Notes under the pieces: model-generated
What the model was told of the DNA's origin: nothing
Database searches by the model: none
What the model saw: only the letters and a program-made list of their open reading frames with translations
Shown here: in pieces, positions 991-51,554 of the stretch
Position numbering within the stretch: the stretch's first letter is position 1
Layout: each line of letters opens with the position of its first letter
Program-made: the position numbers and the translations under genes
From: Paracoccus sp. (in: a-proteobacteria)
Lineage (GTDB): Bacteria; Pseudomonadota; Alphaproteobacteria; Rhodobacterales; Rhodobacteraceae
Direction of reading: 5' to 3'
NCBI RefSeq assembly: GCF_030538655.1
Contig: NZ_JAUNTO010000009.1
Span: forward strand, 12,487 to 76,486
DNA length: 64,000 nucleotides

Positions 991-1084
991 CCGGGGGTCA
1001 CACCCCCATTCGTCGGGGAAAAGGTCCACTGGATCTTTTCCTGACCCTCCTCATCCCGTGGGATATTTAAGGACAGAAGATGCG
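991..1084 (+). repeat. Palindromic repeat family, copy 1 (hairpin CCGGGGGTCACACCCCC, then a 45-nt insert, then tail CCCGTGGGATATTTAAGGACAGAAGATGC)
   Basis: Conserved tail shared with 7 other loci. Lies after the puuD stop and before xdhA. Confidence 0.6.
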
Positions 1085-15896: not shown

Positions 15897-15958
15897 GGCC
15901 GGACCGGGGGTTTCACACCCCCGGACCCCCGTGGGATATTTGGAAACGAAAGACGAGG
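15897..15958 (+). repeat. Palindromic repeat family, copy 2
   Basis: CCGGGGGTTTCACACCCCCGG hairpin, then ACCCCCGTGGGATATTTGGAAACGAAAGACGAGG. Starts 1 nt after the fabD stop and ends 6 nt before the fabG ATG. Confidence 0.7.
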
Positions 15959-20557: not shown

Positions 20558-20734
20558 TTGCGTCCCGCGATGCCGGGGGGGCATTCTGCCCCCCCGGCCC
20601 CTGAGGGCGGTTCAGGTCGCAGCAGTGATCCACCATGGATTGCGCTTGCACTCCAATTTGGTTGCAAACGCGCGGTTTTGGTCCGGCATACTGGCCCCCG
20701 GTTGCCCATGCGTCCGGGGGCGGTCCTGTGCAGA

Positions 20735-25488: not shown

Positions 25489-27611
25489 GGGGCCTCGGTC
25501 GCGGTTGGGGCAGGGGATGCCTGCACTGGCAGCGCCGCCACCTTTGGCGCGGTCTGGGTGCTGTAGGCTAGATCAAGCCTCAGGCCATCGGCGACATGGG
25601 TTGTCGGACGCAGGAATTCCTCGGTCGATACTTGCCAGCTGTGCTGGGCAATTTGGCTGTAACGAACGGCGATATGATCATAGGGATCGGCAGAAAAGGT
25701 AAGACCGCCTCGCTCTCTCGCGTCGTTATAGAACGCGATATCTACAGCCTTGGGCAAATCCTGAAAGCGTAAGTCATCGAGTTTGCTGCGTGACCAGAAA
25801 ATCGTGCTGCCGAAGACACGCTCCACAATCTGGTTCGCTTTCCTTTCAGAAAAACGCAGCACCAGCGCATCCGTATCCTGCGCATAGCAATAGGCCCGTG
25901 CCCGTCCGGTTATGGCGATGTTGTCATGCCCCGACCAGGTCAAGGCCGCGATGCTGCTGCGGATATAGTCGGGACCATAAAAATCGTCGTCGTCGATCTT
26001 GGTCACAAGATCGGTATGACAGGCATCCAGCCCAAGGTTCAGCGCCCGGCCCAGTGAAACCGCCGGGTCAGGCAGATCAATCACGGTCAGTGAGGTCACA
26101 CCGTCAAATGCCGCCTCGATCCTGGCGCGATCATGGCCCGCCCCCTGCGCGACATAGACGACATGCAGGGGCCGGTGGCTTTGTGCCACCAGTTGCGCGG
26201 CGATGCGATCCAGACGGTCAGGGCGTTTTGAACAGACAATCGCTGTGACCGGCTGCTGGCAGGCGGGATCAAGCCCGGTCATGGCGGCAAAATTGCGCCG
26301 CACGACGTGATCGGGCACCACGCCGCCTTGCGGGGCGGCGAACGGGCGGGGCGCGCCGGGTTGTGGCGGGAAATGCAGCCGGGCTGCATCGGGTTGACCG
26401 GGGGACAGGGTTGCGTGCCACTGCCGCCAACCGGCTGCGTAATCTTTGCGTGTCTGGGAAAGGCCGGTTTCTGCGTTGATGCCCGATTCGGGGTGGTTGG
26501 TCAGGCTGCCCTCCATCTCGATGGCAAACATCGCCATCAGAGGAAGGCGGGTGAATTCATCGCTGATCAGGGTTTCGGTCCGGGCGATCAACTCGCTGTC
26601 GGCACCAAAGCGGGCGCAATCCCATCCGCCCAAGGTGTCGCGCAGGAAATCGGCGCGAAAAGTCGTTGCGATGGGGCAAAGCCGGGTCACGCCATCGGTG
26701 CTGTAGCTGGATTCGACCGCAAACCGCACCACCGCGCCATCCGGGTTCATCCGTGCCATCTGCGGCACACTGGCGCGCGGCGGGGTTGGTGCGGACAGGA
26801 TCGCGCCGATATGCTGTTCGATCCGCTGCGGATGCGCCCAGTCGTCGGCATCATGGCCGGTGATCCAGTCACCCCGCGCCATGGTCAGCGCGATGTTCTT
26901 GGCCACATACGGCCCCGCATTCACCCGCCCGCGCAAAATGCGCACGCGGCTGTCGCTGGCCGCGATCTGCTGCATCTCGCCCCAGGTGCCGTCGGTGCTG
27001 GCATCATCGACGATCAGCAGTTCCAGATTGCGCCATGTCTGGTTCAGGATCGAGCGCGCTGAGGCGGTGATGGTGCCTTGGGCATTCCACGCAGGCATGA
27101 TGACCGACACCAGCGGCCCGCCTGTTACCGGCGTCAGCCCTTGCGCGCCAAAACGGTCGATCAGATGCGTGCCCGCGTCCTTGGCCCATGTCACCGGGGC
27201 CGCGCCGAAATGGCCGATATAGCGGTTCAGATGCGCCAGCCAGCCCACCCGGTCGCCCGCCGCCAGCGCCCGGTTGGCGCGCAGGGTTTCAATCGTATAG
27301 GCCGTTTCCACCGGCACATGCGCCGCAGCATAGCGCACCGCCACGTCATAGCCATAGTCCTCGGCGATCCGTGCCGCCATGCGCAGCGATTGCCGCGTGC
27401 GCGGCGGCGGCAGATAGTCGGCCAGCCGGGCGGGGTTTTCGGCCAGCCCCGGCCCCGCCGCCCGCCGCATCAGCACGCCATAGCGGCGATAATGCAGCGC
27501 CGGGTCCAGCCCCGACATATCCACATCGGGATAGCGGCGGCGATAAAACTCGGCGTCGAAGGCCTGGCCTTTCAGAATGGCGTCCGCCAGCTTGGCACGG
27601 GTTTCAGGCAT
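25485..27611 (-). CDS. Multidomain glycosyltransferase: N-terminal ~45 aa conserved module, central GT2 domain and a second C-terminal GT2-like domain
   Basis: LVSVIMPAWNA...LLIVDDASTDGT...GHDADDW, then VTAIVCSKRP...KIDDDDF. Confidence 0.65.
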   Translation of the reverse strand: MPETRAKLADAILKGQAFDAEFYRRRYPDVDMSGLDPALHYRRYGVLMRRAAGPGLAENPARLADYLPPPRTRQSLRMAARIAEDYGYDVAVRYAAAHVPVETAYTIETLRANRALAAGDRVGWLAHLNRYIGHFGAAPVTWAKDAGTHLIDRFGAQGLTPVTGGPLVSVIMPAWNAQGTITASARSILNQTWRNLELLIVDDASTDGTWGEMQQIAASDSRVRILRGRVNAGPYVAKNIALTMARGDWITGHDADDWAHPQRIEQHIGAILSAPTPPRASVPQMARMNPDGAVVRFAVESSYSTDGVTRLCPIATTFRADFLRDTLGGWDCARFGADSELIARTETLISDEFTRLPLMAMFAIEMEGSLTNHPESGINAETGLSQTRKDYAAGWRQWHATLSPGQPDAARLHFPPQPGAPRPFAAPQGGVVPDHVVRRNFAAMTGLDPACQQPVTAIVCSKRPDRLDRIAAQLVAQSHRPLHVVYVAQGAGHDRARIEAAFDGVTSLTVIDLPDPAVSLGRALNLGLDACHTDLVTKIDDDDFYGPDYIRSSIAALTWSGHDNIAITGRARAYCYAQDTDALVLRFSERKANQIVERVFGSTIFWSRSKLDDLRFQDLPKAVDIAFYNDARERGGLTFSADPYDHIAVRYSQIAQHSWQVSTEEFLRPTTHVADGLRLDLAYSTQTAPKVAALPVQASPAPTATEAP

Positions 27612-28983
27612 CGAACGGCTCCTGTCGGTCAGGGCAAGTGGCGGGGATCAGCGAAGCGGGCACGATCATCGCATCCGGCGCGGGAAAGCGGCGTATCCGT
27701 TGGGGAAACCCAAGCCGTTTGTCATCGGCCCCGGCGCGGCTGTGCCAGTCGCGCCAGCTTTCGTTATAGGCTTGGCGCGGCCCCTTGGCCCCGCCCGTCT
27801 GGCGCAAGGCGCTGGCCGGGGCGTTGGTCAGGTTATCGGCCCCATCAAGGCACAGCATGGCAAAAACATCCAGATTGCGCCATGCCGGGCCAAGCAGGCT
27901 TTGGGCGCGGGCCACCATCTCGCCATCGGCACCAAAGCGCACACAGTCGAAATAGCCCAGCCGGTCGCGCAGCGTATCGGCATGAAACAGCGTCGAAACA
28001 AAGGCCCGCCGCCGGAAACCGTCGGGCGCATGGTGCAGGCTGGCCGGGATCACATTGCCGAAATGCCCCGCCGCCCCCATACGCAGCATCATCGCCGTGC
28101 TGGCCAGAATCGCGCCCTCGCTGCGTAGAACGTCGGACATGTGCCGCTCGATCCACTGTGGATGCGCCCAGTCGTCGGCGTCGTGTCCGGTGATCCATGC
28201 GCCGCGGGCCATCTGGCTGATGGCGATATTCTTGGACACGAACGGGCCAAGGTTGCGGCTGTTGCGGATCACCCGCACGCGGTCATCGGATGCCGCGATC
28301 TGCCGCAACGCGGCGGTGGTGCCATCGGTGCTGGCATCATCGACGATCAGCAGTTCCAGATTGCGCCACGTCTGGTTCAGGATCGAGCGCGCGGCGGCGG
28401 TGATCGTATCGGCGGCGTTAAAGGCTGCCATGATGACGCTGACCAAAGGCCCGCCGGTGCAGGGCGGCAGCGTTTCGGTTGTCAGCCGGTCCAACAACCG
28501 CGCGGGCTGCGGGGCAAGCCGCAGCGGTGCGATGCCCCAGGGTGACAGGTAGGCGTTCAGATGATCCAGCCACGCCAGCCGCCCGTTAACCTTGTCCCGC
28601 AAGGCCAGATCGGCGGCGATCAGATGCAGCGGGCGCAGCGCCTTGTGGCCCAGATGCGCGCGCGCCATCTGTGCGGCCTGATCCAGCCCTTCGGTCGCGG
28701 CAATCTTGCGCGCGGCGATCATCACCCGCCGCCACAGATCATCGGGCGGGCCATCCCGCAGCCAGCGGTCCAGCGTGCCCTGCGCATCATCCGTGCCATC
28801 GGCCAACAAATCCGCGCGCAGCCCCGGCCCCGGATCGCGCCCCATCAGGTGGCCCACGCGTTTGTAATGCTCCAGCGGCGACAGGCCCGAGCGCGCAACA
28901 TCGGGATAGCGTGCGGCATACCAGCCCGCATCGAACAGAGCCAGCCCGTCCAGATCCCGCCCAAGCTGATCGCTGTTCGCCAT
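27604..28983 (-). CDS. GT2 glycosyltransferase, paralogue of the GT2 domain of 25485..27611
   Basis: Same N-terminal module (RYPDV..SGL.P..HY...G.....GPG) and GT2 core. It shares a ~90-nt near-identical DNA stretch with the neighbouring gene. Confidence 0.7.
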   Translation of the reverse strand: MANSDQLGRDLDGLALFDAGWYAARYPDVARSGLSPLEHYKRVGHLMGRDPGPGLRADLLADGTDDAQGTLDRWLRDGPPDDLWRRVMIAARKIAATEGLDQAAQMARAHLGHKALRPLHLIAADLALRDKVNGRLAWLDHLNAYLSPWGIAPLRLAPQPARLLDRLTTETLPPCTGGPLVSVIMAAFNAADTITAAARSILNQTWRNLELLIVDDASTDGTTAALRQIAASDDRVRVIRNSRNLGPFVSKNIAISQMARGAWITGHDADDWAHPQWIERHMSDVLRSEGAILASTAMMLRMGAAGHFGNVIPASLHHAPDGFRRRAFVSTLFHADTLRDRLGYFDCVRFGADGEMVARAQSLLGPAWRNLDVFAMLCLDGADNLTNAPASALRQTGGAKGPRQAYNESWRDWHSRAGADDKRLGFPQRIRRFPAPDAMIVPASLIPATCPDRQEPFDA

Positions 28984-30441: not shown

Positions 30442-30492
30442 GCCCTGTCTTTCGTTTATAAATATCCCGGGGGTGCGGGGGCTGGCCCCCGC
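30442..30492 (-). repeat. Palindromic repeat family, copy 3
   Basis: On the minus strand: GCGGGGGCCAGCCCCCGC hairpin, then ACCCCCGGGATATTTATAAACGAAAGACAGGGC. About 95% identical to copy 6. Lies between the dinB stop and the glycan-operon start. Confidence 0.7.
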
Positions 30493-34087: not shown

Positions 34088-34133
34088 GCTACTGTCCTTG
34101 CCCGAAAAATTGCCAGCCTTGCAAGGGGTGGCG

Positions 34134-34177
34134 AGGGAGTCAGCCTCCGGCGGGGATATTTATCGGACAGAAGATGC
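34134..34177 (+). repeat. Palindromic repeat family, copy 4 (short hairpin GGAGTCAGCCTCC, then CGGGGATATTTATCGGACAGAAGATGC)
   Basis: Lies between the divergent starts of the ABC exporter and the aminotransferase. Confidence 0.55.
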
Positions 34178-35839: not shown

Positions 35840-36406
35840 TCACGCTGTTGGCATCACCAGCAGCGTGACCAGCGTGTCGCCATAGCGGCGCTGGTCGATC
35901 CGGGTCAGCGGTGCGGGCGGGGCAGGGGGACGGCTTTCTTCCCAGACGATGGTTGCGCCGGGGGCGATCCAGCCACCATCCAGCGCCGATTGCAGCGCGG
36001 CTTCGCCCAAGGTTCTGCCATAGGGCGGGTCGAGGAAGATCAGATCGTAAGGCGCGCCCCGGTTCGGGCCAAGCCGGGTGGCGTCGCGCCGCCACAGGTC
36101 AGTGGTGCCCATGGCGCGGGCGCGTTCGATATTGGCGCGGATCAGGGCGCGGCCTGCGGCCCCGTCCTCGACAAAGGCTGCGCGGATAGCGCCTCGGGAC
36201 AGGGCCTCTAACCCCAAGGCACCGGTGCCTGCGAACAGATCCAGCACCCGCGCGCCCGGCACCGGGTCGGGGCGTGGGCTGTTGGTCAGCAGGTTGAAGA
36301 TCGACTCGCGCACGCGGTCGGTGGTGGGGCGCAGATGCCCCGCCGCATCGCCCGCGCCGACCTCGGCCAGTTTCAGGCCGCGCAGATTGCCGCCGACGAT
36401 CCTCAT
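35840..36406 (-). CDS. rsmD: 16S rRNA (guanine966-N2)-methyltransferase
   Basis: RsmD family (RPTTDRVRESIFNLL...DPPY). Confidence 0.7.
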   Translation of the reverse strand: MRIVGGNLRGLKLAEVGAGDAAGHLRPTTDRVRESIFNLLTNSPRPDPVPGARVLDLFAGTGALGLEALSRGAIRAAFVEDGAAGRALIRANIERARAMGTTDLWRRDATRLGPNRGAPYDLIFLDPPYGRTLGEAALQSALDGGWIAPGATIVWEESRPPAPPAPLTRIDQRRYGDTLVTLLVMPTA

Positions 36407-36421
36407 GGCCGTGCCAAAAGA

Positions 36422-36472
36422 GCGGGGGCCAGCCCCCGCACCCCCGGGATATTTGGAAACGAAAGACAGAGC
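36422..36472 (+). repeat. Palindromic repeat family, copy 6
   Basis: GCGGGGGCCAGCCCCCGC hairpin, then ACCCCCGGGATATTTGGAAACGAAAGACAGAG. Overlaps the stop codon of the minus-strand reductase gene, upstream of rsmD. Confidence 0.7.
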
Positions 36473-36473
36473 A

Positions 36474-37673
36474 TCACATCAGCGCCTTGAGATCGGGGGT
36501 TGTCGGGATCAGGTCGGGGTCGGCGGTGCGCCCTGCCTCGATCAGCCGTTTGCCGATCATATAGGCGCGGGGTTCATTCAGGGCATCGACGGCGATCAAT
36601 TGCGGGCCGCGGAAATACCAGACCGAGCCGTGCCCCGGCTGATCGCCCGCGCGGGTCACGATACGGTCGGCCCCGGTGCCCAGCCCGGCGATTTGCAGTT
36701 TGGCGTCGTATTGATCGGACCAGAACCACGGTTTCGGGGTATAGGGCGTGTCAGCGCCCATGATGTTCGCCGCCACCGCCTCGGCCATGTCGATGGCGTT
36801 GCCGACGCTTTCCAGCCGCATCCAGCCGGTGTCGGTCAGCATGCTGGCGCAATCGCCCGCCGCCCAGATGGCCGGGTCGCTGCTGCGGCCATAGCTGTCG
36901 GTGGCGATGCCGTTGTCCGTGGCCAGACCGGCGGTTTCGGCAAGGTCGGTGACGGGCGTGACGCCGATCCCGGTGACGATCACATCGGCGGGGATCATAT
37001 CGCCGCTGGTCAGCTCCACGCCGGTGGCGCGGTCGGTGCCGGTGATGCGGGTGATCGCCTCGCCCTCGCGGATGGTGGTGCCGTGGCGGCGGTGCAGGTC
37101 GCGGATCAGATCGGCGGTTTCGCTTGCTGCGACGCGGCCAAGGATGCGCGGGGCGGATTCGATCAGCGTGACCGCAAGCCCCAGTTTGCGGGCAACCGCC
37201 GCCGCCTCAAGCCCGATATAGCCGCCGCCGATCACCACCAGCCGCGCGCCGGGCCTTAGCTCGGGGCGCAGCCGGTCCACATCGGACAGATCGCGGATGG
37301 TGTGGACGCCGGGCAGGTGGCCACCGATCCTGGCAGGCAGGCGGCGAGGTCGTGCGCCAAGGCACAGCGCCAGTGCGTCATAAGCGACCGGCCCGGCATC
37401 GGTTGCCACCATGCGGGCGGCGGTGTCGATGGCGGTGGCGCGGGTGCCGGTGCGCAGGTCGATGCCGTTTTCCGCCCACCATTCGGGCGCCCGCAGGGTC
37501 AGCCGGTCCAGCCCCATGTCGCCCAGCAGATAGGCCTTGGACAGCGGCGGGCGCTGATAGGGGGGCGCGGCTTCATCGCCGATCACGGTCAGTGGCCCGT
37601 CGTGCCCCAGCCCCCGCAGCTTTGCCGCCATCGAGGCCGCCGCCTGTCCTGCCCCCGCAATCACGATACGCAT
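36474..37673 (-). CDS. FAD-dependent pyridine nucleotide-disulfide oxidoreductase (ferredoxin/rubredoxin reductase type)
   Basis: IVIAGAGQAA and a second Rossmann motif, VVIGGGYIGLEAA. Confidence 0.65.
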   Translation of the reverse strand: MRIVIAGAGQAAASMAAKLRGLGHDGPLTVIGDEAAPPYQRPPLSKAYLLGDMGLDRLTLRAPEWWAENGIDLRTGTRATAIDTAARMVATDAGPVAYDALALCLGARPRRLPARIGGHLPGVHTIRDLSDVDRLRPELRPGARLVVIGGGYIGLEAAAVARKLGLAVTLIESAPRILGRVAASETADLIRDLHRRHGTTIREGEAITRITGTDRATGVELTSGDMIPADVIVTGIGVTPVTDLAETAGLATDNGIATDSYGRSSDPAIWAAGDCASMLTDTGWMRLESVGNAIDMAEAVAANIMGADTPYTPKPWFWSDQYDAKLQIAGLGTGADRIVTRAGDQPGHGSVWYFRGPQLIAVDALNEPRAYMIGKRLIEAGRTADPDLIPTTPDLKALM

Positions 37674-37749: not shown

Positions 37750-38235
37750 ATGACGATCAAGGCGAATGACAAGCTGCCGCAGGGCAAGGTTCTGGTTCTT
37801 GGCGAGGATGGCCCGAAAGAGGTCGCGCTGGCTGATCTGACCAAGGGCCGCGTGGCGATCTTTGGCCTGCCGGGCGCGTTTACCGGCACCTGCACCAACG
37901 CGCATATGCCCAGCTTTATCCGCACTGCCGATGCGTTCCGCGCCAAGGGCATCGACGCGATCCTGTGCCTGACGGTGAACGACCCCTTCGTGGCCGGCGC
38001 ATGGGCCAGGGAAACCGGCGCGGATGCAGCCGGTATTCAGGTGCTGGCCGATGCCGACGGCAGCGTAACCAAGGCGATGGGTCTGAATTTCGACGCCCCG
38101 CCTGCCGGTCTGTATGGCCGCTGCAAACGCTTTGCCGCACTGGCCCGCGACGGCGTGTTCGAGGTGGTGCAGATCGAAGACAGCCCCGGCACCTGTTCCG
38201 TCTCGGCGGGCGAGGCGTTGCTGGAAAATGCCTAA
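37750..38235 (+). CDS. Peroxiredoxin (Prx5-like)
   Basis: GLPGAFTGTCT peroxidatic Cys motif. Confidence 0.75.
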   Translation: MTIKANDKLPQGKVLVLGEDGPKEVALADLTKGRVAIFGLPGAFTGTCTNAHMPSFIRTADAFRAKGIDAILCLTVNDPFVAGAWARETGADAAGIQVLADADGSVTKAMGLNFDAPPAGLYGRCKRFAALARDGVFEVVQIEDSPGTCSVSAGEALLENA

Positions 38236-40688
38236 TGTCCCCGTGGCTTGGCCCGCATCGTCGGGTCGGCCACGGTCGGGTCTTCGGGCCAGGGGTGGCG
38301 CGGGTAACGCCCGCGCATATCCTTGCGCACATCGGCATAGGATGTGGCCCAAAAGCCCGGCAGATCCATTGTGACCTGCACTGGACGTCCCGCCGGGGAC
38401 AGCAGGCTGATCCGCAGGGGGCGCCCACCCACCACCGGATGCCGGGTGACGCCGAACAGTTCCTGCAAACGCACCTCGATCGAGGGATCGGCGTGATCGT
38501 AATCAATCGGCACCTGCCGCCCCAGAGGCGTGGTAAAGGTTGCCGGAACCTCTGATTTCAGCCGCTGTTGCCCGTCCCAGCCGATGCGCGCCAGCAGTGG
38601 CTCGGTCAGGTCCAGCGCGCGCAGATCGGCCCGCGTCCGCGCCTTGCCCAGCCATGGCAGCAGCCAGTCCGCATCAGCCAGCAGACTGTCATCGTCGCAG
38701 GGCGGCAGCCCGTCCGCCAAACCAATCCGTGCCCGCAAACGCGCAGCGCGCGGAATCCAGGGCAGCCCCTCGGCCCGCAAGCCCTCAAACGCCGCCAAAG
38801 CCACCACATCTTCGGGCGCATCCCAGATGCGATCCGACAAGACCAGCGCCCCCAGCCGTTCCCGCACACGGGCCAGAACGCGCCCCTCGCGCCGGGACCA
38901 TTCGCAGACCTCGACCATTTCGATCTGATCTGCAAACAAGGCCCGCAGATCCGCTTCGGCCACAGGCGTCGCCATCCTGACCCGCGCCTCGCGCGCATCG
39001 CCGTCCAGATCAACCGCCACGATAAACCGCTGCCCGGCCAGCGGATCGGCAGCATCCAGAACCGCCCCCTTGCCCCCCGACAGCACAAAGCGGGGATCGT
39101 CCCCCTTGCGCCGCATCCCGATCCGATCCGGATAAGCAAGCGCTGCCATCGTGCCTGCATCTTTTGTCCCTAAATATCCCGCGACAGCCGGGGGGCTGGC
39201 CCCCCGGCTGTCGCGGGACGCAATCAATCGCCGCAGCCGCCGCGCTTCGTCCCGCGCCTGTGCCAATGCGCCATGATCGACGGTCCAGGGATGACGATCC
39301 GCAAAAGCGCGCGCATCGCGCAGCGCCATCAACCGCAAGCCCAGATCGGCGGGCGTGCCGCGCAAAGGGTCGCGCCCCGCCAGCAATGCCGCCAGATCAG
39401 CCGCCCCGGCACCCGCCAGCATCAGCATATGCGCCAGACGCGGATGCAGCGGCAGCCGCGCCATCGCCCGCCCGTGTTCGGTTATCCGCCCGCCCTCGCC
39501 CAAGGCCCCCAGCCCGGCCAGCAACGCGCGCGCCTCGGCCAAAGCTCCTTCGGGCGGTGGGGTCAACAGCGCCAGATCGCCCGGCTCGGCCCCCCACAGC
39601 GCCAGTTCCAGCGCCAGCCCGGCCAGATCGGCCACAGCGATTTCGGGCGGGGCAAAGGCGGGCAGGGCACCTTCCTCGGCCCGTGCCCACATCCGATAGC
39701 ACACCCCTTCGGCCACACGCCCGGCCCGGCCGCGCCGCTGATCCGCCTCGGCCCGGCTGACCCGCTCGGTTACCAACCGCGACATGCCCGAACCGGGGTC
39801 GAACCGCGCCCGCCGCGCGCGGCCTGCGTCCACCACCACCCGCACGCCCGGAATGGTCAGCGAGGTTTCCGCAATCGCCGTCGCCAGCACGATCCGTCGC
39901 CGCGAACCCGGCGGTGCAAGCGCCGCCCGCTGCGCCCGACCGTCCAGCGCGCCATACAGCGGCAGCACCTCGCAGCCCGTGCCGCCCAGCATCCCGGCCA
40001 CACGGCGGATTTCGCCTTCGCCCGGCAGAAACACCAGCACGGTTCCGCCCATATCGGCTGTTTCGGCCACGGCACGGATCACCAGCCGCGCCGCCTCGTC
40101 CGGCAGCCGCGCCCCGGCGTGCAAGGGGCGGTCCAGCCAGCGCGTCTCCACCGGAAAAGCCCGCCCCTGAGACCGCACCACCGGCGCATCATCCAGCAGC
40201 GCGGCGACGGGTTCGGCATCCAGCGTGGCCGACATCACCAGCACCGCCAGATCGGGCCGCAACAAAGCCCGCGCCTGCCAGACCAGCGCCAGCCCCAGAT
40301 CGGCATTCAGGCTGCGTTCGTGAAACTCGTCGAAAATGACGCAGCCCACCCCTTCCAGCGCCGGGTCAGACTGGATCATCCGCGTCAGGATGCCTTCGGT
40401 GACCACCTCGATCCGTGACCCCGCCACCGTCTCGCCGCGCATCCGATAGCCGACACGACCGCCCACCGCTTCGCCCAGACTCTCGGCCAGACGCTCGGCT
40501 GCGGCCCGCGCGGCCAGACGGCGCGGCTCTAGCATGATGATCCGCCCCGGCACCTGATCCAGCAAGGCCAGAGGCACCCGCGTCGTTTTCCCCGCGCCCG
40601 GCGGGGCCACCAGCACGGCACGCCCTGCCGCCGCCACGGCATTGCGCAGCGCGGGCAGAATGTCGTCGATGGGCAGGCGATCCGTCAT
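38232..40688 (-). CDS. hrpB: ATP-dependent RNA helicase HrpB, carrying an in-frame repeat-element insertion
   Basis: DEAH-box helicase motifs (GAGKTT, DEFHER) and an HrpB C-terminal region. Residues ~490-510 are encoded by a copy of the window's palindromic repeat. Confidence 0.8.
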   Translation of the reverse strand: MTDRLPIDDILPALRNAVAAAGRAVLVAPPGAGKTTRVPLALLDQVPGRIIMLEPRRLAARAAAERLAESLGEAVGGRVGYRMRGETVAGSRIEVVTEGILTRMIQSDPALEGVGCVIFDEFHERSLNADLGLALVWQARALLRPDLAVLVMSATLDAEPVAALLDDAPVVRSQGRAFPVETRWLDRPLHAGARLPDEAARLVIRAVAETADMGGTVLVFLPGEGEIRRVAGMLGGTGCEVLPLYGALDGRAQRAALAPPGSRRRIVLATAIAETSLTIPGVRVVVDAGRARRARFDPGSGMSRLVTERVSRAEADQRRGRAGRVAEGVCYRMWARAEEGALPAFAPPEIAVADLAGLALELALWGAEPGDLALLTPPPEGALAEARALLAGLGALGEGGRITEHGRAMARLPLHPRLAHMLMLAGAGAADLAALLAGRDPLRGTPADLGLRLMALRDARAFADRHPWTVDHGALAQARDEARRLRRLIASRDSRGASPPAVAGYLGTKDAGTMAALAYPDRIGMRRKGDDPRFVLSGGKGAVLDAADPLAGQRFIVAVDLDGDAREARVRMATPVAEADLRALFADQIEMVEVCEWSRREGRVLARVRERLGALVLSDRIWDAPEDVVALAAFEGLRAEGLPWIPRAARLRARIGLADGLPPCDDDSLLADADWLLPWLGKARTRADLRALDLTEPLLARIGWDGQQRLKSEVPATFTTPLGRQVPIDYDHADPSIEVRLQELFGVTRHPVVGGRPLRISLLSPAGRPVQVTMDLPGFWATSYADVRKDMRGRYPRHPWPEDPTVADPTMRAKPRGH
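39158..39217 (-). repeat. Palindromic repeat family, copy 5, located inside the hrpB coding sequence in-frame
   Basis: On the minus strand: CGCGACAGCCGGGGGGCCAGCCCCCCGGCTGTCGCG perfect 16-bp stem, then GGATATTTAGGGACAAAAGATGC. Translated as SRDSRGASPPAVAGYLGTKDAG. Confidence 0.65.
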
Positions 40689-47706: not shown

Positions 47707-47783
47707 TCCGCCCTCGCCCCAACGAATGCATGGCCGTCCTTGGGGGCGGCCATTTTCATTGCCGCAACCCGGCCTCATCTTTG

Positions 47784-47826
47784 GTCTGGAAATATCCTCA
47801 GGGGGTCCGGGGGCAGAATGCCCCGG
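47784..47826 (-). repeat. Palindromic repeat family, copy 8 (degenerate, truncated tail)
   Basis: RC reads CCGGGGCATTCTGCCCCCGG hairpin, then ACCCCCTGAGGATATTTCCAGAC. Lies between convergent gene ends. Confidence 0.4.
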
Positions 47827-47926
47827 TGTCGCGGGATGCAACCCATCATGGCGGGCTGGCATCGGTCCGTCACCGCCCCCCTCATGCCGCGATGCCGCAC
47901 ATTGGCTGCGGTCTCGGCAGTCGCCC

Positions 47927-50705: not shown

Positions 50706-50732
50706 CCGCACCCGCTGCGCCGGATTGCCCTG

Positions 50733-50770
50733 CCGGAGCCTCCGGCGGGGATATTTTACGACAGAAGATG
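50733..50770 (+). repeat. Palindromic repeat family, copy 7
   Basis: CCGGAGCCTCCGG hairpin, then CGGGGATATTTTACGACAGAAGATGC. Lies between the convergent gltX and phosphatase gene ends. Confidence 0.55.
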
Positions 50771-51477: not shown

Positions 51478-51554
51478 GGCGGAGTAGCTCAGTTGGTTAG
51501 AGCAGAGGAATCATAATCCTTGTGTCGGGGGTTCAAATCCCTCCTCCGCTACCA
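51478..51554 (+). tRNA. tRNA with CAT anticodon (elongator tRNA-Met, or tRNA-Ile2 if lysidinylated)
   Basis: 77 nt cloverleaf GGCGGAG...CTCCGCT-A-CCA. Anticodon loop CATAAT with CAT. T-loop GGTTCAAATCC. CCA is encoded. Confidence 0.8.

Follow-up and report, generated by a model that had tools for sequence, protein, structure and literature searches.

We analysed a 64,000-nt window (64 kb) of a Paracoccus sp. contig. On its minus strand the window carries an intact hrpB coding sequence (CDS) at 38232..40688, whose open reading frame (ORF) encodes a DExH-box helicase of 818 aa; the assignment was based on the ORF list, Pfam and the E. coli HrpB structures. The Pfam matches of the ORF were DEAD, Helicase_C, HA2_N, CON_HrpB and HrpB_C. 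The protein matched E. coli HrpB structures 6HEG and 6EUD with E about 8e-159, and the 6HEG match (E = 7.9e-159) covered HrpB residues 4-453 and 514-814. The RecA1/RecA2 core, the WH-HB-OB accessory domains, the connector and the C-terminal domain that define HrpB membership were all found, and the protein was 100% identical to that of a Paracoccus sp. metagenome-assembled genome (MAG). Within this gene lies an in-frame copy of a palindromic repeat family, which is the subject of this report.

The repeat element within hrpB

The full element occupies 39158..39223 on the minus strand (66 nt = 22 codons). Its ends were set by comparison with intergenic long-form copies of the family, and it encodes (I)ASRDSRGASPPAVAGYLGTKD; the peptide of the 66 nt is IASRDSRGASPPAVAGYLGTKD. 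The minus strand of 39149-39240 reads TTGATTGCGTCCCGCGACAGCCGGGGGGCCAGCCCCCCGGCTGTCGCGGGATATTTAGGGACAAAAGATGCAGGC, and the 818-aa ORF translates straight across the element as ...RRLIASRDSRGASPPAVAGYLGTKDAGTMAALAYPDR... (wider context ...EARRLRRLIASRDSRGASPPAVAGYLGTKDAGTMAALAYPDRIG...). Sequence and translation confirmed the initial annotation, made from the sequence alone, that an in-frame copy of the window's repeat family lies within the HrpB ORF. Its reading of the copy as translated in frame also stood, but its size of 60 nt and ~20 residues was too small by 6 nt, since the element extends to 39223. The frame was intact in every orthologue that carries the element, including DNA loci retrieved independently of annotation (L001, L003, L005, L110 and L134). 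Judged from this ORF conservation, the element is most likely read through by the ribosome as a peptide of ~22 residues.

The left box of the element, TTGCGTCCCGCGAC (39210..39223, minus strand; 14 nt), encodes ASRD; comparison of family copies showed this module only in those of Paracoccus. Stem and inverted-repeat searches revealed a 42-nt perfect palindrome at 39177..39218, with a 19-bp stem and a CCAG loop on the minus strand. The GGATATTT core and the purine-rich tail AGGGACAAAAGATG (39158..39179, minus strand), found by motif search, encode GYLGTKD. In the stem, TCCCGCGACAGCCGGGGGG pairs with CCCCCCGGCTGTCGCGGGA over 19 bp around a 4-nt loop, rather than over the 16 bp claimed initially; formally, the inverted-repeat arms are 20 nt each and 2 nt apart (39177-39196 / 39199-39218). 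In length, this palindrome exceeded every other perfect local inverted repeat of the 64 kb (runner-up, 12 nt), and the RNA fold of an 86-nt region reached -53.1 kcal/mol (z = -5.8 relative to shuffles). The 19-bp stem adjoins UAUUUAGG, which bears a weak resemblance to a terminator. The terminator scan gave no call at the hrpB copy on either strand, and no sigma-70 promoter was called there.

HrpB proteins from ~70 non-Paracoccus Rhodobacterales genera had only a hypervariable linker of 8-12 aa between EAKRLxR and LSPxxMAALAYPDRIG. Basal Paracoccus (P. pantotrophus and others) had the same short linker, e.g. RRMAGEGAGLSPGA. The ASRD...GYL segment is therefore derived. Repeat-less orthologues sharing the segment, named in advance as counter-evidence, did not appear: none of the ~70 outgroup HrpBs carries it. 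An indel of ~20 aa had been predicted at exactly this site; the position was right, but the net gain is only ~13-16 aa, part of the old linker having been lost. The insertion is neither recent nor private. Among the 120 closest Paracoccus HrpBs, a majority has the segment at this very position, and the junction after RRL and the frame are identical in all carriers. A remnant persists in P0036 (VASCEGRGAAALSPGA), whose DNA (L089) matches the relative L085 except that the 3′ arm and tail are deleted, and a tail-less derivative is common to the whole P. marcusii clade. Paracoccus HrpBs P0088-P0098, which at 870 aa are ~65 aa longer than their relatives, have no linker insert; their extra ~65 aa therefore lie elsewhere in the protein.

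The location of the element in the protein was assessed by AlphaFold2 modelling based on 22 orthologues (mean predicted local distance difference test score, pLDDT, 71.9). Residues 495-507 had pLDDT <50 and lay between helices 472-495 and 511-518, with flanks at ~90. HrpB residues 454-513 were the sole internal part that did not align to E. coli HrpB. The HrpB domain order is RecA1-RecA2-WH-HB-OB-CON-Cter (PMC7237152), and the insert site is therefore the HB-OB junction. When the insert was mapped onto the model, as proposed to look for a surface loop, it fell in a loop of low confidence flanked by domains that were modelled well. In L058 (~40 aa, Pro/Ala/Arg-rich) and L038, this HB-OB linker has unrelated expansions, which indicate that the site tolerates insertions. 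The insert site is thus a permissive surface linker, probably a disordered one.

The repeat family within and beyond the window

Family copies have a common architecture: [G/C]CGGGGG, a loop, CCCCCG[C/G], ACCCCC, 1-4 nt, GGATATTT and a purine-rich tail. The core is common to many Rhodobacterales, where it was found in hrpB flanks and on plasmids and is often identical over at least 30 nt; genera and species that bear it include Cereibacter, Rhodobacter capsulatus, Gemmobacter, Fuscibacter, Leisingera, Tritonibacter and Ruegeria. Only Paracoccus showed a long form, which has the extra left box TTGCGTCCCGCGAY. The box was present in every hrpB copy (exact in 13/14 orthologue copies, diverged in L085), at 20558 and 47828 of the window, in L091, after nadC on a P. 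saliphilus plasmid, and at ~25 different intergenic metagenome loci. In most of the metagenome long-form copies (loci L095-L135), whose genes were not formally called, a stop triplet lay 0-20 nt upstream of the left box. TGA often directly abuts TTGCG in long-form intergenic copies; in hrpB of the window, L081 and L003 the sequence is TGATTGCG, and its TGA lies out of frame. Such arrangements suggest that the element may as a rule directly adjoin the ends of genes.

A metagenome pattern scan gave 41 matches, of which ~14 were due to chance (a single unrelated conserved gene accounted for 8) and ~27 were genuine. Residence in a CDS was found for 1 of 9 window copies and for 2 of the ~27 genuine metagenome long-form matches, both in hrpB. 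Among the sampled plasmid matches, only one proved to lie inside a CDS. This second in-frame copy is in putA of P. liaowanqingii, in reverse orientation (L090:4001-4077; plasmid NZ_CP040764.1). It is a full copy, read as about ...LLHLGENIPGGPGGWPPGDAATQAI..., and adds 12 aa net to a variable linker; the addition is absent from PutA of P. marcusii, P. albus and Aliiroseovarius. The family is therefore able, on occasion, to lodge in frame in permissive linkers. Taken as a whole, it is essentially extragenic, and in-frame residence is not typical of it. Two candidate plasmid matches were rejected: that in Phaeobacter/Leisingera lnt lacked GGATATTT and was a chance match, and that assigned to Gemmobacter hmgA was actually intergenic. 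In five other Rhodobacterales genera, a short-form copy was observed at most ~130 nt downstream of the hrpB stop (L009:12463-12528, L019:12408-12485, L023:12531-12601, L063:12392-12470 and L069:12436-12510).

Within the window, the conserved tail that the initial annotation ascribed to the family was only partly upheld. A looser definition (hairpin, GGATATTT, N3-5, AC, N, RAAGA) gave eight clear copies, with cores at 1061+, 15934+, 30467-, 34154+, 36447+, 39179-, 47797- and 50749+, and a decayed ninth, but the exact 22-nt tail matched only one other window site at ≤3 mismatches (0.00 expected by chance). The eight copies other than that in hrpB are all intergenic. GC3-based gene calling was too noisy at 66% GC for this purpose and was replaced by stop/start context and by L081 gene calls for 28-50 kb. 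The window copies are singletons, kilobases apart.

On the plus strand, the copy at 1055..1082 (tail and motif search) has core and tail GGATATTTAAGGACAGAAGATG, and the copy at 15903..15957 (motif search, ORF context) lies between a TAA stop and the next ATG. The decayed copy at 20558..20610 (plus strand; repeat search) is of the long form and follows directly after a stop codon; it retains the left box, a 12-bp hairpin and a degenerate tail. The minus-strand copy at 30444..30492 (motif search, L081 comparison) has an orthologous copy in L081 with a swapped tail. Motif search also found plus-strand copies at 34130..34176 (subfamily ...GCCTCCGGCGGGGATATTT) and 36422..36470, the latter downstream of a Pyr_redox gene and detected by the terminator scan as well. 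Read on the minus strand, the 36422..36470 copy is a hairpin followed by TCTTTT and is terminator-like for the upstream Pyr_redox gene. The full element is present in window 36408-36472, and the orthologous site L081:14217-14264 has an unrelated or diverged 44-nt spacer. A long-form copy at 47774..47841 (minus strand; left box TTGCATCCCGCGAC) and a copy at 50728..50770 (plus strand), both from the motif search, lie between convergent genes. A spurious 393-aa ORF at 36078-37259 (plus strand), antisense to Pyr_redox, crosses the intergenic repeat there as ...PAPAPPGYLETKD... and illustrates how such repeats seed false GP-rich ORFs in high-GC genomes. The tail (AGGGA..N..ATG) was considered as a ribosome-binding site with start codon and was rejected, its ATG being out of frame with the downstream ORFs.

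Hairpin retention and history of the hrpB copy

DNA was extracted for 14 orthologous hrpB copies. Stems were measured by a direct stem-finding script, because MAFFT misaligns the 5′ arm, in which G/C-run and loop lengths are variable. A perfect GC stem was kept in 14/14 copies: 7-11 bp in 13 of them and 19 bp in that of the window. The hrpB copies differed from one another in loop (CCAG, CGCTG, YCGTCTG, GACGMTGTC and others), closing pair (GC or CG) and run length, and the hairpin subtypes were the same discrete subtypes found in intergenic copies across genera. A loop-spacer pseudoknot was considered and set aside; on inspection, complementarity was present only in the TTTCACA/GTG subtype, and the loop/spacer combinations were taken as subfamily signatures. 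Between species, element identity was 0.81-0.88 whether the 300-nt hrpB flanks were 0.87 or 0.74 identical. In close pairs the element had diverged more than its flanks; in distant pairs it had diverged less.

Tail variants were common to hrpB and an intergenic copy of the same genome: AGGTATTTG.AAAGAGTGCGAG in UBA889 and GGGTATTT...CAAGCAAGAA in L082. Variant GACCAAAGATG occurred in all four L081 copies, and TCGTGAAGAAGA in QIRE01 contigs. In a comparison of 12 hrpB and 29 intergenic copies, hrpB tail identity was 0.78 to same-genome intergenic tails versus 0.64 to those of other genomes, and 0/5000 label permutations were as extreme. Orthologous intergenic copies of the window and L081 (~90% nt identity) showed patchy differences, with tails swapped and hairpins identical. 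The uncoupled divergence and the genome-specific tails suggest that all copies, the coding one among them, undergo templated replacement by gene conversion or re-insertion. These patterns would be explained best if intergenic copies served as donors in gene conversion or template switching, and excision followed by re-insertion at the same site appears less likely. In a stronger form of this proposal, the hrpB copy is an active family member that has been overwritten repeatedly by non-coding repeats, through conversion, template switching or a trans-acting enzyme of the type associated with repetitive extragenic palindromes (REPs); we regard this form as conceivable, though we would put it at rather less than an even chance. 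Dispersed REP copies are reportedly homogenised within a genome by gene conversion, as described by Higgins and colleagues in 1988.

The window differs from its closest relative L081 (88-90% nt identity; HrpB 93% identical) in the hairpin itself. The sequence is of the standard form in L081, GCGGGGGCCAGCCCCCGCACCCCCG, as against CCGGGGGGCCAGCCCCCCGGCTGTCGCG in the window; the right part of the latter is the reverse complement of the left CGCGACAGCC. In the wider alignment, L081 reads GACGGGCGGGGGCCAGCCCCCGCACCCCCGGGATATTT versus GACAGCCGGGGGGCCAGCCCCCCGGCTGTCGCGGGATATTT in the window. The ACCCCC spacer is replaced in the window by the reverse complement of the left box, such that the stem is extended from 7 to 19 bp with a net gain of 3 nt. 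Quasi-palindrome template-switch mutagenesis, associated with the names of Ripley and Lovett, is said to turn an imperfect hairpin perfect by a clustered change. In such a switch, the new arm is the exact reverse complement of the other arm. The 42-nt palindrome would be the expected outcome of an intrastrand quasi-palindrome template switch.

The best overall explanation, which we consider probable, is that a REP-like long-form copy lodged in the hrpB linker, was inherited, and has been kept homogeneous with its family. In an ancestor shared by many lineages of Paracoccus, a long-form copy of the Rhodobacterales REP-like repeat would have settled in frame in the hypervariable, length-tolerant HB-OB linker of HrpB. 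The ribosome would read it as a disordered surface loop of ~22 residues, which may be neutral and would be tolerated because the linker carries no structural constraint. Intergenic copies would then have rewritten the hrpB copy by gene conversion or template switching, with the result that hairpin subtypes and tails follow the host genome. In this genome, the reverse complement of the left box would have been copied over the ACCCCC spacer to give the 42-nt palindrome, and only a frame-preserving palindrome outcome (+3 nt net) would have survived.

Several points weigh against this history. In an HrpB neighbour-joining tree with the insert masked, which is a single-gene tree and not a species tree, presence and absence of the insert needed 6-12 changes across 100 bootstraps. 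A no-insert clade with an ancestral-looking 'RRMAPD' linker was nested among carriers, a placement that fits repeated gains as well as losses. The insert history is patchy; the sequences document losses, and repeated gains are possible. Neither a transposase nor a factor that binds the repeats was identified, nor was a RAYT gene (PF01797), for which no whole genome was scanned. Only one MAG (P0001, one member) is known to have the perfect palindrome, and the left arm of the window also differs from that of L081 at 2-3 positions, so that more than one event would be needed to form the palindrome. The tail comparison had few intergenic copies per genome, and it assumes that the QIRE01 contigs, and likewise two Ga0181344 contigs, each come from one genome. 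Translation of the insert is deduced from the intact ORF.

Some of these points are also what recurrent independent insertion at a hot spot in hrpB would leave behind. A mobile element (e.g. one with a 'peel-and-paste' transposase) would enter, leave and re-enter the linker, and each lineage would hold a fresh copy of its own genome's subfamily. The patchy distribution on the HrpB tree, with its 6-12 changes, and the nested no-insert clade with an ancestral-type linker fit such a process, as do close relatives with different canonical hairpin subtypes (L001 vs. L084; window vs. L081), the match of hrpB tails to their own genome's family, and the copies just downstream of the hrpB stop in L009, L019, L023, L063 and L069. 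However, all carriers share one left junction and one frame, and in situ decay (L089) together with the tail-less P. marcusii group shows long vertical residence. Target-site duplication, terminal inverted repeat and transposase were not found, and no within-species filled/empty polymorphism was seen. We consider recurrent insertion unlikely. A gained function of the hairpin or peptide in hrpB is far less likely still. It would account for the near invariance of ASRD and GYL within an otherwise hypervariable linker and for the hairpin in 14/14 DNA orthologues, and candidate functions are a ribosome-pausing mRNA structure, an RNase processing site, a partial intragenic terminator (the window stem adjoins the weakly terminator-like UAUUUAGG) and a new protein interaction loop. 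The same nucleotides, however, are conserved in intergenic copies across genera; therefore conservation follows the family and not the protein. In several lineages the tail, or most of the element, is gone and hrpB is intact, the terminator scan was negative at the site on both strands, and the peptide is predicted to be disordered.

We find it barely credible that the relation runs in the reverse direction, with the family or its long form derived from hrpB, or that the similarity arose by chance. The left box was seen in Paracoccus alone, the genus that has the hrpB element; all hrpB copies have it and, among the intergenic copies of the sampled flanks, a minority, as an origin in hrpB would predict. 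Against such an origin, the short-form family occurs in many genera without the segment in hrpB, many long-form copies lie at unrelated intergenic loci, and the long form is present in P. saliphilus DSM 18447, whose hrpB has no insert. The chance expectation of 0.00 for the tail argues against coincidence. For the whole element, the reverse direction is largely refuted; an hrpB origin of the left-box module alone is unlikely but conceivable. A long-form copy lodged in the linker, inherited and kept homogeneous with its family, is the history that we prefer.

Rfam had no family for the element in either the gathering scan or the E ≤ 5 scan, in which the sole overlap was a spurious miRNA-hairpin match. 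The only Rfam match in the window above the gathering threshold was a tRNA gene at 51478-51551 (plus strand). Elsewhere in the window, tandem paralogous stretches at 26568-27138 and 27895-28471 (direct repeats, 71-82% identical, ~1330 nt apart) are probably duplicated neighbouring genes.

Significance and comparison with known systems

With the hrpB copy, a free-living bacterium provides a clear case in which a conserved helicase gene harbours a palindromic repeat that is most likely translated; dozens of species have it. It offers a usable system, with many orthologues in which the insert is present, absent or decayed, a hairpin in every carrier, and a coding copy apparently in step with the non-coding ones. 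Questions that it could serve are how REP-like repeats are kept homogeneous, whether gene conversion reaches coding DNA, and how proteins absorb selfish DNA as disordered loops. If the hrpB copy is active, the loop peptide of a helicase would be re-written on the time-scale of species divergence with the DNA hairpin preserved, and selection or mechanism acting on a selfish DNA structure would dictate protein sequence over genus-level time. The literature searched contained no description of the repeat family in Paracoccus or Rhodobacter, and the hairpin-ACCCCC-GGATATTT family may represent an undescribed, order-wide REP system of Rhodobacterales. For annotation, GP-rich 'ASRD...GYL' loops should be expected in Paracoccus proteins, and such hairpins can confuse assembly and alignment.

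In-frame insertion of this kind is not as unusual outside Rickettsia as the initial annotation stated; in-frame intragenic REPs and transposable elements of the miniature inverted-repeat type (MITEs) have been documented in several phyla (PMC3733652, PMC10969869). Di Nocera et al. 2013 (PMC3733652) reported, for several species other than Rickettsia, REPs with a GTAG or CGTC tag that lie in frame and encode 20-30 aa, and intragenic REPs were enriched in DNA-repair and RNA-helicase genes (PMC3733652). A 2024 review (PMC10969869) described in-frame MITE-ORF fusions as 'not unusual'. The Rickettsia palindromic elements (RPEs; Ogata et al. 2000, as cited in PMC10969869) resemble the present element in that an in-frame palindromic repeat in a housekeeping gene preserves the ORF and adds a peptide (here a presumed one) as a fold-compatible loop. 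The hrpB element showed this in-frame, ORF-preserving, fold-compatible arrangement; it did not belong to the RPE family, and its family did not reside largely in CDSs. RPEs are ~100-150 nt long in Rickettsia, whereas the element here is 66 nt long and has a free-living Paracoccus host; the two are unrelated sequence families, set apart by size and host and not by direct sequence comparison. RPEs are frequently intragenic, whereas copies of this family are overwhelmingly extragenic, and the hrpB copy, unlike RPEs, appears to keep co-evolving with its intergenic relatives.

MITEs such as ERIC in enterobacteria and QMITE1 of Coxiella (PMC10969869, PMC5896051) are likewise small and non-autonomous and form in-frame ORF fusions. 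The present element differs in having no terminal inverted repeats: its ends, TTGCGTCCCGCGA... and ...ACAAAAGATG, are not complementary, and its palindrome is internal. Neither the hrpB junctions nor the intergenic copies showed an evident direct repeat, in a comparison that had no clean filled/empty pair. Terminator-like repeats (e.g. SPRITE) consist of a hairpin followed by a T-run; the scan called only the minus strand of 36422-36470.

The closest class is that of REP-like elements. Like REPs and REPINs, the family consists of short GC-rich multi-copy palindromes, mostly just downstream of ORFs and occasionally in frame inside genes. It has GC stems of 7-20 bp, 9 copies in 64 kb and multiple copies in the flanks of many genomes, and is predominantly extragenic. 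It differs from REPs and REPINs in that its copies here are singletons and not inverted doublets, and in its long conserved non-palindromic 3′ module (ACCCCC-GGATATTT-tail). The CGTC tetranucleotide is found in the Paracoccus left box only (TTGCGTCC), at a distance of 8-9 nt from the stem; short-form copies lack it. The perfected hairpin and the homogenised copies recall systems of template switching and REP conversion; the difference is that here, as far as sequence comparison indicates, both processes seem to act inside a CDS under frame constraint. In-frame insertion is thus of a kind already known, and what extends it here is the genus-wide persistence of the hairpin in a CDS, the apparent concerted evolution and the perfected palindrome.

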